Origin: Octopus vulgaris
Lineage: Eukaryota
Assembly: GCA_951406725.2 (NCBI GenBank)
Contig: OX597817.1
Span: 136,896,001 to 136,960,000, forward strand
Direction: 5' to 3'
DNA length: 64,000 bases
Both the position numbers and the translations under genes were made by a program. Shown in pieces: positions 42,001 through 53,001 of this stretch; the first letter of the stretch is position 1; each line of letters starts with the position of its first letter. Under the pieces are notes generated by a model. It was given only the letters and a program-made list of their open reading frames with translations, was not told the DNA's origin and ran no database searches.

Positions 42001-42122
42001 AATGCCGTGCGCCACAACCTTAGTCTTCACAAATGTTTTATGCGAGTTGAGAATGTTAAGGGGGCTGTATGGACCGTCGACGAGGTAGAGTTCTACAAAC
42101 GGAGACCACAAAAACTGAGTGG
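42001..42122 (+). CDS. FoxP: FoxP forkhead exon 3A, canonical ([41 protein letters not shown])
   Basis: Acceptor ctctgcttag| at 42000, donor GG|gtatgt at 42123. 122 nt, phase 0-2, canonical recognition helix N-x-x-R-H-x-x-S. Confidence 0.97.
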
Positions 42123-43651
42123 GTATGTTTTTTTTTTTGTTTGCTTGATTGTTGTCATTTTTTTTTTTACAAAACTTTACGAAAAGCAAAAACTCACAAA
42201 AGAAAAAAAAACAAAAGAAAATGATGAAAGAATTAATATTAACCTCTTTCTCTCTCTCTCTCCTTTCTCACTTTCTTTCTTCATCATCGCATATATATGT
42301 ATATATGTGAATGTATATATACATATATATCTTTTCCCCCTTTGTGAGATGTTGATGTGGTTCGCCAAGCTTGTGAAATCTGACCTTGTGGCAGAATATT
42401 TTCTTGGTTGTTTTTTTCTTTTTCTTACCATTTTTGAAATTTAACTATTCTCCCCCCACCACTGCCATACAAACTCTAAAGCTCAGAAAAAAGTTCAGTC
42501 TTTGTTAACCTCACCACATTACTTCAATTATTACAAAAAGAAAAGAAAAAAAAATTTTAACGTTTTTCTCTTAAATATTTTATATAAATTTTTAAAAACT
42601 ATTTATTTTTGTCTTTTTCTTAAGTTAATTTCTTTTAGAAAGTTTTTTTTTTCCTTTTCATTTTACATGTGAGAGTTTATATGAGTATGTACTCATGTAT
42701 GTTTATATACTGTTTGCATGTGTGAGCAAAGGTGTATGTATGTGTATATATATATATATATATATATTTGTGTGTGTGTGTGTGTGTTCATCCATACTTG
42801 TCTGTCGATTCATTTATCTCTTAATTTCTTTCCAAGTAAATATTTAGAAAGTCTTGCAGAATTACATCTTATAAATTTCCTACATTGTCTTCTTTTCCAG
42901 TAGTTTTGATGCTAAATAATTTTGTATTTGCCTCAAGGTTTCTTTTTGTCTTCTACTAGTTCCAACCAATGGCTTGTGTGTGTTTGTGGGGGGGGGATTC
43001 CTTCATCTGGCGCTTGTTGTTGCCACTATGCTTAAATCTTTCAATCTTTCTCTCATACAGTTTTTATAGGAACCAAGTAAATATTAACATTAATAATAAT
43101 TATAATAATAATAATAATAATGATAATGATTTATTTTATTTGCCACCAGGGTGAAGGATGAGGCGGGGCAATAGAAAGACAGACATAAAGTGTTGAGGTT
43201 TACATATAATGGAATAATTAAAGCAAACGAAGTATACATGGTGTACAATAAACAAAGGAAGGCAATATACAGTAGTAAGGAAACAAAAAAGATGATAGTG
43301 ATGTGGTCCTCCTGATACAGGAAGACTTCTAGGGAAAATTGTTGAACCCTACCATCCAAGATCTCCTTGAACACCAAGGGCAAGCACCTTCTCCAACTCA
43401 CGGGTCAGTGGAGGGGAATTGGAGAAGTAGCACCCACTCTTGCCAATAAATTCAACCAAGGACCGCACCTCTCTACGCTCACTTTTCTTTCCAAGTGAAA
43501 CTTAAAAAAGTTGATGAGGCCTCCACCAAAGAGGAATGCATCTATCCTCATGCCTTTCAACCTCGTCACTAACAACATTGATATCAGCAGCCATAATAAT
43601 AGATAATAATGCCAATAATAATAACCGCAACAATAATAATAATAATAATAA

Positions 43652-44341
43652 TCCTTTCTACTATAGGCACAAGGCCTGAAATTTGGGGTGGGGGACTAGT
43701 TGATTACAGTGACCCCAGTATTTCATCAACCCCAAAAAGATGAAAGGCAAAGTTGGCCAAGGTGAAATTTGAACTACCAAACATAAGGACAGACAAAATG
43801 CTGCTAAGCATTTTCCTGCTGTGCTAACAATTCTGCCAGCTCACCACCTTAATAATAATAATAATAATAGTAGTAGTAGTAATCGATAACAATAACAGCA
43901 ATAATAATCCTTTCGACCACAAGCACAAAGCCAGAAATTTTTGCAGGAGGGGATTTGTTGATTACATTGACCCCAGTGCACAACTGGTATTTATTTAACT
44001 GACACCAAAATGATGAAATGATGGAATTTCAACTCATAATGTAAAAATGAATGAAATTCCACTCAGCAATTTGTCCAACATGCTAATTAATAATTCTGCC
44101 AATTTACTGCCTTAACAACAAGAACAATAATGATGATGATGATGATGATGATGACAATAACAAGATAATCCTTTCTACTAAAGGCACAAACCTGAAATTT
44201 TGGGGAAGGGGATTACTCAATGACATCAAGCCCAGTGTTTCACTGGTACTTAATTGACCCCTAAAGGATGAAAGGCAAAGATTGAAATGCTAATAAGCAT
44301 TTTGCCTGGCATGTTAACAATTCTGCCAGCTCACTGCCTTA
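43652..44341 (-). mobile_element. Three tandem SINE family A copies (43652-43851, 43907-44113, 44168-44341) separated by (TAA)/(TGA) runs
   Basis: Each begins TCCTTTC.AC..(T/A)AGGCACAA and ends TTCTGCCA...GCCTTAA on the + strand. Confidence 0.85.
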
Positions 44342-51297: not shown

Positions 51298-51640
51298 ATA
51301 GTGCTGCCTGACTGGCTCCTGTGCTGGTGGCACGTAAAAAGCACCATCCAAGCGTGGTCGATGCCAATACTGCCTGACTGGTTCCTGTGCCAGTGGCATG
51401 TAAAAAGCACCTTTCAAGTATGGTCAATGCCAGTGCTGCCTGACTGGCCCTTGTACCAGTGGGACATAATAAAAGCACCCACTACACTCTTGGAATGGTT
51501 GGCATTAGAAAGGGCATCCAGCTGTAGAAACCTTGCCAGATCAGATTGGAGCCTGGTGCAGCCTCCCAGCTTGCCAGTCCTCAGTCAAGCCGTCCAACCC
51601 ATGCCAACATGGAAAGCAGATGTTAAACAACGATAATGAA
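51298..51640 (+). mobile_element. SINE family B copy
   Basis: Three ~67-bp internal repeats, then the family body. Confidence 0.85.
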
Positions 51641-52843
51641 ATGTTTAGTAATAACTTGTAGGCTGGATATTGACAAATAATTTTTGTGAACTCAGTCTTT
51701 TTACTATTGTCTCACCTTTTCATTAACCTGTAACAGTTAAGTACAAGATCTAATTTTAACAGCTTAAACATTGGAGGAGGTCACCAATTATAATGATTTG
51801 CACCAAATAAATGAGAGTAGAAGATATTAATTGTTAGTTGAAAAGGTTTTTTTTTTTTTATATCGTTATTGTTACAAAGTTACAACTACTCTGAGTTGTA
51901 TCTTCAGTTTTCTGTAGGTAGTTAGCTTCATCTGTGAGTAATTAGTAAAGAAAGAAAGAGTAAGAGAGTTGTACATTGACAATCCCTAAATGAAAGGAGC
52001 AAATGAGCTGTGTTCTTTGGGTAGGTGTCAAGTAACCAAAGAGGAGGAACTGATTTCAGGTTGCTTATCTATATTCTTCCTAACCAGATTACATCAGGTT
52101 AATCAAAGAATATTTTCCTCTGTATCAGCTTTGACCCATGTATGTCTCAAAAAGATTAGAGATTTCAGTTAACTCTCATAAATATTTTAGTGCAACAGGC
52201 AAGAACAATAGGCAGAGAACTTGTAGAAAAATGTAGATTTAATTTGAAATCCTGGTTCAGAAATTGGAAGCTATAATCAACTGACTATAAATTTACCTTT
52301 TTTAGGCAGTTGAAATTATTTAACTCCCCCATTTCACTTCATCAGTGTATTTCTGCATTAATTTTCCATATAAAGGGTGGAGGTGGGGAGGTCTTTTTCA
52401 TTAACATCAGACTGATTAGTAAGATTTATATGTAAGAAGAAAACCTTTGCAAAATTTTTCAGTTAATTTTCATTTTAATTGTTTTAGAAATTGGAAAATA
52501 TTTCCTAATGGCATCAGGATTTATGTCTGCAAGTGGATCTGTGTATGTGTTCATGTAAACTTCCCAGTATTTTTACTCTCAGTCAGTGGATGATATTATT
52601 CTTTGTTTTTTATTTGTTTTTCTTTTATTTTTTTCATTCCATATTAACAAAATACAACATGATAAAGCATTAAACCAATTGGTTTGAGTATCTTATATGC
52701 ATGACCAACGAAAATTTCTCTACAAACTGAAGACTTTTTCATGGGCTTGGCTACTGTATATTCCCCTCTCTATATACATTTTCTGCCCTGCTGCTAACGC
52801 CATCTGCTGTCTTCTTTCCCATTTTTCTTCTCTTGCTGCACAG

Positions 52844-53001
52844 AATGCTATTCGCACCAATTTGTCCCTGCATAAATGTTTTGTAAGATATGAGGATGAT
52901 TTTGGATCGTTTTGGATGGTGGATGACTTTGAGTTCGTTAGGCGCCGCCATCTGACTCGTGGACGACCCCGAAAATATCACGAAAGTGACACTGCTGCAC
53001 A
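52844..53001 (+). CDS. FoxP: FoxP forkhead exon 3B, alternative paralogous exon ([53 protein letters not shown])
   Basis: Branch-like GCTAAC at 52793-52798, a long pyrimidine tract and cag| at 52843. Donor CA|gtaagc at 53002. 158 nt with the same 0-2 phase as exon 3A, aligning to it residue by residue. Confidence 0.95.

Follow-up and report, generated by a model that had tools for sequence, protein, structure and literature searches.

The octopus FoxP locus retains the bilaterian pair of alternative forkhead exons, one of which encodes an AT-hook-like tail

The window, i.e. the whole 64,000-nt stretch of Octopus vulgaris DNA that was analysed, carries, on its plus strand, the part of a FoxP gene that encodes the forkhead domain. 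Members of the FoxP subfamily combine a coiled-coil/zinc-finger region with a C-terminal forkhead domain, and both were recognised in the matching protein (Pfam PF16159, E = 2e-32, and PF00250, E = 3e-24), the exons of which form one locus around the window. The features referred to below are the following.

19386..19713, + strand: coding exon of FoxP preceding the forkhead domain, with AG/GT borders; it matches O. vulgaris CAI9721853.1 at 100% in tblastn
25018..25136, + strand: exon encoding the beginning of the forkhead domain (RPPFTY); a second in-frame acceptor lies at 25060
27467..27568, + strand: constant exon C, encoding forkhead helices 1-2 and the first part of helix 3, with a phase 0 donor into A or B
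42001..42122, + strand: alternative exon A (FOXP1 18a / Drosophila iA type), 122 nt, borders AG/GTATGT, with the canonical His in the recognition helix
52784..52843, + strand: exon B acceptor region, with a CTAAC branch-point candidate, a 109-nt AG-free zone and six YGCY motifs
52844..53001, + strand: alternative exon B (FOXP1 18b / Drosophila iB type), 158 nt, borders CAG/GTAAGC, with His changed to Thr, an acidic wing 1 and a basic tail
52958..52978, + strand: RGRPRKY, AT-hook-like motif directly after the last forkhead helix, judged by Pfam score, conservation and likeness to the plant Type-II motif
63921..63996, + strand: constant exon D, internal, with a phase 2 acceptor common to A and B

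Following the donor at 27568, exons A and B alike begin in phase 0; each ends in phase 2, as the acceptor at 63921 requires. The introns separating C from A, A from B and B from D are 14,432, 10,721 and 10,919 nt long, respectively. The reading frame is open in C+A+D as well as in C+B+D. Inclusion of both exons (C+A+B+D) brings in a TAA at 52884-52886, 115 nt ahead of the B|D junction. The initial annotation had recognised two paralogous exons 10.7 kb apart and had predicted both their in-frame joining of 27568 to 63921 and the stop upon double inclusion; the splice borders and translations agree with it on all of these points. Its further proposal, that skipping of both exons leads to a TGA in the last exon, holds for the stop codon, which C+D encounters at 63972-63974, but not for the exon: D ends at 63996 with a GTAA donor and two further coding exons lie outside the window, downstream of that stop, so that D is not the last exon.

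Other elements of the locus were also observed. The acceptors at 25018 and 25060 are both in-frame and 42 nt apart, resulting in the presence or absence of 14 residues just N-terminal of the forkhead domain, and both the plus and the minus form occur among the O. vulgaris models. The C-A intron contains a minisatellite (33310-34140; 21 copies of a 40-nt unit). A MITE-like element with 150-nt inverted arms, 93% complementary and spaced by 95 nt, is located in the B-D intron (57577-57971) and is possibly a substrate for RNA editing.

The similarity between A and B is far above chance (21 of 35 aa identical; tblastn E ~1e-12 within the window). At the nucleotide level 62 of 105 bases are the same, and the distribution of matches over codon positions (27/35 at second and 14/35 at third positions) is that expected for an old duplicate under selection. 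The window showed no third copy of A or B and no further exon C, and a genome search with exon B returned only two matching places, namely A and B. The residue changes are as initially described. The recognition helix reads NAVRHN in A and NAIRTN in B, wing 1 is acidic in B (net charge over residues 15-24 of +1 in A and -2 in B), and the tail RGRPRK of B stands where A has KRRPQK. With the contact residues assigned after the available text of Santos et al. 2011 (PMC3002244), the base-contacting His is replaced by Thr in octopus B, and Asn, Arg, Ser and Trp are unchanged at the other contact positions.

The octopus B domain is predicted to fold as a normal FoxP forkhead. Its AlphaFold model (118 residues; mean pLDDT 81.9) superimposes on the FOXP2-DNA structure 2a07_J with an rmsd of 0.6 Å over 81 columns, and its best Foldseek matches are FoxP3, FOXP2 and FOXP4. 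The last helix of the model ends at residue 98 and the RGRPRKY tail is unstructured. Searching the PDB with the sequence of B yielded eight matches, none of them a B-type structure and each with fewer than 37 of 52 residues aligned.

An exon pair of this kind was described by Santos et al. 2011 (PMC3002244), the available text of which reports RT-PCR evidence for it from fly and mouse, together with in silico evidence from arthropods, annelids, molluscs and chordates, dates it to the base of Bilateria and ascribes its origin to tandem duplication. As far as that text goes, the octopus exons correspond to the pair in being homologous tandem exons with A before B, positioned after a constant forkhead exon and sharing the same phases, as well as in the His554-to-Thr change and in the division into A and B clades. 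In a tree of 38 exon peptides, albeit over only 35 columns, a single branch with 99/98 support separates 20 B from 18 A rows, and the vertebrate FOXP1 18b-type and insect B exons fall on the side of octopus B. The alignment of B with FOXP1 18b and Drosophila FoxP that had been proposed thus gives a B-type grouping, and the view that octopus has retained the ancient FoxP/FOXP1 switch is upheld. The hint at novelty for molluscs was overstated, Mollusca being already covered in the available text of PMC3002244. The main text of that paper names no cephalopod (molluscs are named in its supplementary table S1, outside this check), and among the papers listed by a literature search on octopus or cephalopod FoxP isoforms none deals with the octopus A/B pair. 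The part available of a catalogue of tandem exon duplications enters FOXP1 as common to Drosophila. The octopus A-B intron measures 10.7 kb, whereas the starts of A and B are 0.46-1.46 kb apart in the eight metagenome loci in which both were located.

The suspicion that exon B might have been missed by annotation was unfounded, since it is present in 15 of 24 Octopus models and the C+B+D peptide occurs verbatim in public proteins. Two cluster look-ups provided these FoxP protein models from three species (12 from O. bimaculoides, older versions and one partial model included, 5 from O. vulgaris and 7 from O. sinensis); nine contain A only, 15 B only and none both. They are products of automatic annotation and attest presence at most, and the lack of models with both exons may partly be a pipeline effect, because models may be built to avoid stop-containing forms. 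The C+A+D peptide of the window was found verbatim in five and C+B+D in seven O. vulgaris or O. sinensis proteins. At the protein level exon B is identical across the three Octopus species (52/52 aa in O. bimaculoides XP_052822827.1). Chiton models show a similar partition, with A in 3/8 and B in 5/8. The use of A is backed independently of the models by a RACE primer, applied to brain RNA of O. vulgaris according to the available text of PMC2722649, which is identical to the 22-mer across the C|A junction. The exon pair in octopus is the known bilaterian switch and is already contained in public octopus gene models.

Unusual FoxP genes were encountered in two other animals. Argonauta hians possesses, beside a normal copy, a second, divergent FoxP (GAB1607731.1) in which the A-type helix 3 and the wing are altered, and a single annotated protein of Panonychus citri contains three FoxP forkhead starts, two of which are complete with exon A.

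A protein search seeded with exon B resulted in 390 matches (392 candidates), and conservation was assessed on 120 listed matches, two of which end before the RGRPRK motif. Among the matches listed, all 118 full-length B sequences share Thr5 and R-G-R-P-R-K without exception, the residue following the latter is Tyr in 114, and Asn1 is present in 114/118 and replaced by Gly in four, all vertebrate; these figures are inflated, because the matches were selected by likeness to B and the query itself holds the motif. Identity to octopus B amounts to 44/45 for chiton and nemertean, 42/45 for Drosophila obscura and 34-35/45 for vertebrate FOXP1 B. Scanning of metagenomes, with 21 of 64 parts contributing, gave at least 18 loci; in the 18 considered, A precedes B in nine, C is directly followed by B in six and neither arrangement is seen in three. 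The pN/pS values of octopus B against 18/18 metagenome loci range from 0.045 to 0.14 (synonymous sites are saturated and the animals distant, making this a rough stand-in for cephalopod dN/dS), and exon B appears to be under strong purifying selection in comparison with distant animals. It is barely credible that octopus exon B is a defunct or seldom used copy, in the face of this apparent selection, of its intact frame and splice sites, of its protein identity in three Octopus species and of its use in 15/24 models.

In the metagenome contigs L026-L031 exon B is located only 58-136 nt after exon C, and no exon A was found between the two or elsewhere in the retrieved DNA. These contigs possibly carry FoxP paralogues with B only, which would reverse the 'A kept, B lost' pattern of Santos et al. 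2011. Splice signals were compared between loci as well. The exon A donor (42123-42128) is GTATGT, and GTAYG is found in 7/8 other loci examined; together with the 'GYV' read-through seen in gene models of vertebrates and others, this suggests that the donor is old and conserved. The exon B acceptor (52837-52843) ends in TGCACAG, as it does in L015 and L032, the loci with B most like octopus B.

As to how only one exon comes to be included, steric exclusion is ruled out by the length of the A-B intron (10,721 nt), and incompatibility of the major and minor spliceosomes by the ordinary GT-AG sites (donors GTAAAT, GTATGT and GTAAGC with AG acceptors). Docking site/selector RNA duplexes operate in some other mutually exclusive exon arrays, which offers a general precedent for competing duplexes enforcing exclusion in octopus. 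However, none of the 12 flank pairings surpassed random intron pairs in strength in this single genome. The best duplexes between seven splice-site segments and the whole pre-mRNA had modest energies of -28 to -41 kcal/mol, and the top three displayed for C, A and B were long, gapped or low-complexity pairings. No inverted exon copy and no inverted copy over the exon C donor or any splice site was found in these single-genome tests, and the inverted repeats of greatest length lie away from the exons and consist of paired microsatellites or elements. We consider exclusion by RNA duplexes improbable. Given that steric exclusion would need shorter introns, that the sites are all GT-AG and that a docking duplex was not found, we infer as the simplest account that trans-acting factors would set splice-site choice such that one exon is included, and that double-inclusion and double-skip transcripts would be removed by nonsense-mediated decay.

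In mammals, MBNL represses FOXP1 18b (available text of PMC13044900 and PMC4978528), and Muscleblind proteins could choose or repress octopus exon B in the same way, via the YGCY cluster at the branch point. The 70 nt before B contain six YGCY motifs against a background mean of 0.6, a density unmatched by any other window of that size across 36 kb of intron, and the acceptors of C, A and D have 0, 1 and 1, respectively. A dinucleotide shuffle nevertheless gave p = 0.18, and other exon-B acceptors, most of them apparently from arthropods, have only 0-2 such motifs in 18/18 loci. A Muscleblind-dependent choice is thus doubtful. For the locus as a whole, it is very probable that a single octopus FoxP gene carries two tandem-duplicated half-forkhead exons that are used one or the other through factor-driven choice and decay, giving proteins that likely read DNA differently.

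According to the available text of three reviews (PMC11701043, PMC13044900, PMC8989529), vertebrate FOXP1-ES has a preference for CGATACAA over GTAAACAA and contributes to pluripotency, and MBNL acts as its repressor. Within the published description available, FOXP1 18/18b and the octopus pair, the latter as predicted from reading frame and gene models, are both internal mutually exclusive exons with a recognition-helix Thr, an acidic wing, an RGRPRK tail and a shared downstream exon, and skipping leads to a premature stop in both. The two differ in helix 3, where FOXP1-ES combines Asn-to-Gly with His-to-Thr, whereas octopus B has the Thr and retains the Asn. The available text of PMC3002244 models fly B with one contact change, His554-to-Thr, and mouse B with a second, Asn550-to-Gly. 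Because vertebrate B has this second contact change, the FOXP1-ES motif is not transferable to octopus B, and the initial annotation went too far in carrying the specificity change over. The stem-cell role and MBNL control are features described for vertebrate FOXP1-ES.

In Drosophila, FoxP-iA and FoxP-iB arise from alternative terminal exons, and operant self-learning has been linked to form B (available text of PMC4070984, PMC7776582 and PMC6372147), whereas the octopus exons are internal and followed by three shared coding exons. D. obscura B retains the Asn, as does octopus B, and over 35 columns the latter is identical to fly B at 33 positions, compared with 26-27 for FOXP1-ES. Octopus B is closer to fly B than to FOXP1-ES and, because the Asn is kept, its motif is expected to differ from that of A mainly at the His position. 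Form A is predicted to bind the canonical GTAAACA-type motif, and form B to read the His position in a relaxed or shifted manner. It is also predicted that form B may gain minor-groove contact with AT-rich flanks via RGRPRKY.

The tail of B contains the AT-hook core, R-G-R-P followed by basic residues, and RGRPRKY is letter-identical to the signature of the plant AHL Type-II AT-hook in the available text of PMC7896510. Both AT-hooks and the octopus tail are predicted to be unstructured when free. The HMGA consensus has an upstream Pro and Lys/Arg (PMC11354804, available text), whereas octopus B lacks them and has LT before RGRP; the likeness to plant and HMGA AT-hooks is likely convergent. With scores of 15.0 and 16.2 bits against Pfam AT_hook PF02178, below the gathering cut-off of 17.4, RGRPRKY is not classed as an AT-hook member. 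The motif is present in 231/233 B-containing and in 0/14 A-only proteins collected. We tentatively regard it as possible that exon B trades the major-groove His contact for a true AT-hook; the switch across Bilateria, human FOXP1-ES included, would then produce a forkhead combined with a minor-groove reader of AT-rich flanks.

That RGRPRK serves only as a nuclear localisation signal (NLS) or general basic patch in place of KRRPQK, and not as a minor-groove AT-hook, is very nearly an even prospect, with the Pfam score under the cut-off and the missing Pro and Lys/Arg of the HMGA consensus in its favour. An NLS usually requires less strict conservation than exact R-G-R-P-R-K invariance, and the motif, exact in 118/118 and followed by Tyr in 114 among the matches listed, is tighter than that; identity with the plant Type-II signature and the lack of RGRP in all 14 A-only proteins also speak against an NLS or basic patch alone. 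FOXP2, on the other hand, has NLS regions on both sides of its DNA-binding domain (10.1101/2024.03.12.584681, available text). The terms 'hook' and 'minor groove' are absent from the main text of Santos et al. 2011, and forkhead proteins do not figure in the main text of a review on AT-hook proteins. A literature search, with the FOXP1-ES primary paper outside its range, found no paper proposing an AT-hook in the FoxP B form.

The octopus finding confirms a known bilaterian switch, and the fresh lead is the putative minor-groove hook, present in B only. The primers used in the 2009 cloning of octopus FoxP lie on exon A (PMC2722649, available text), and A-based probes are blind to form B. According to the Drosophila literature available to us, the form falling into this blind spot is the one linked in the fly to operant self-learning. 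If the AT-hook reading is true, a second DNA-contact change would be added to the FOXP1-ES switch.
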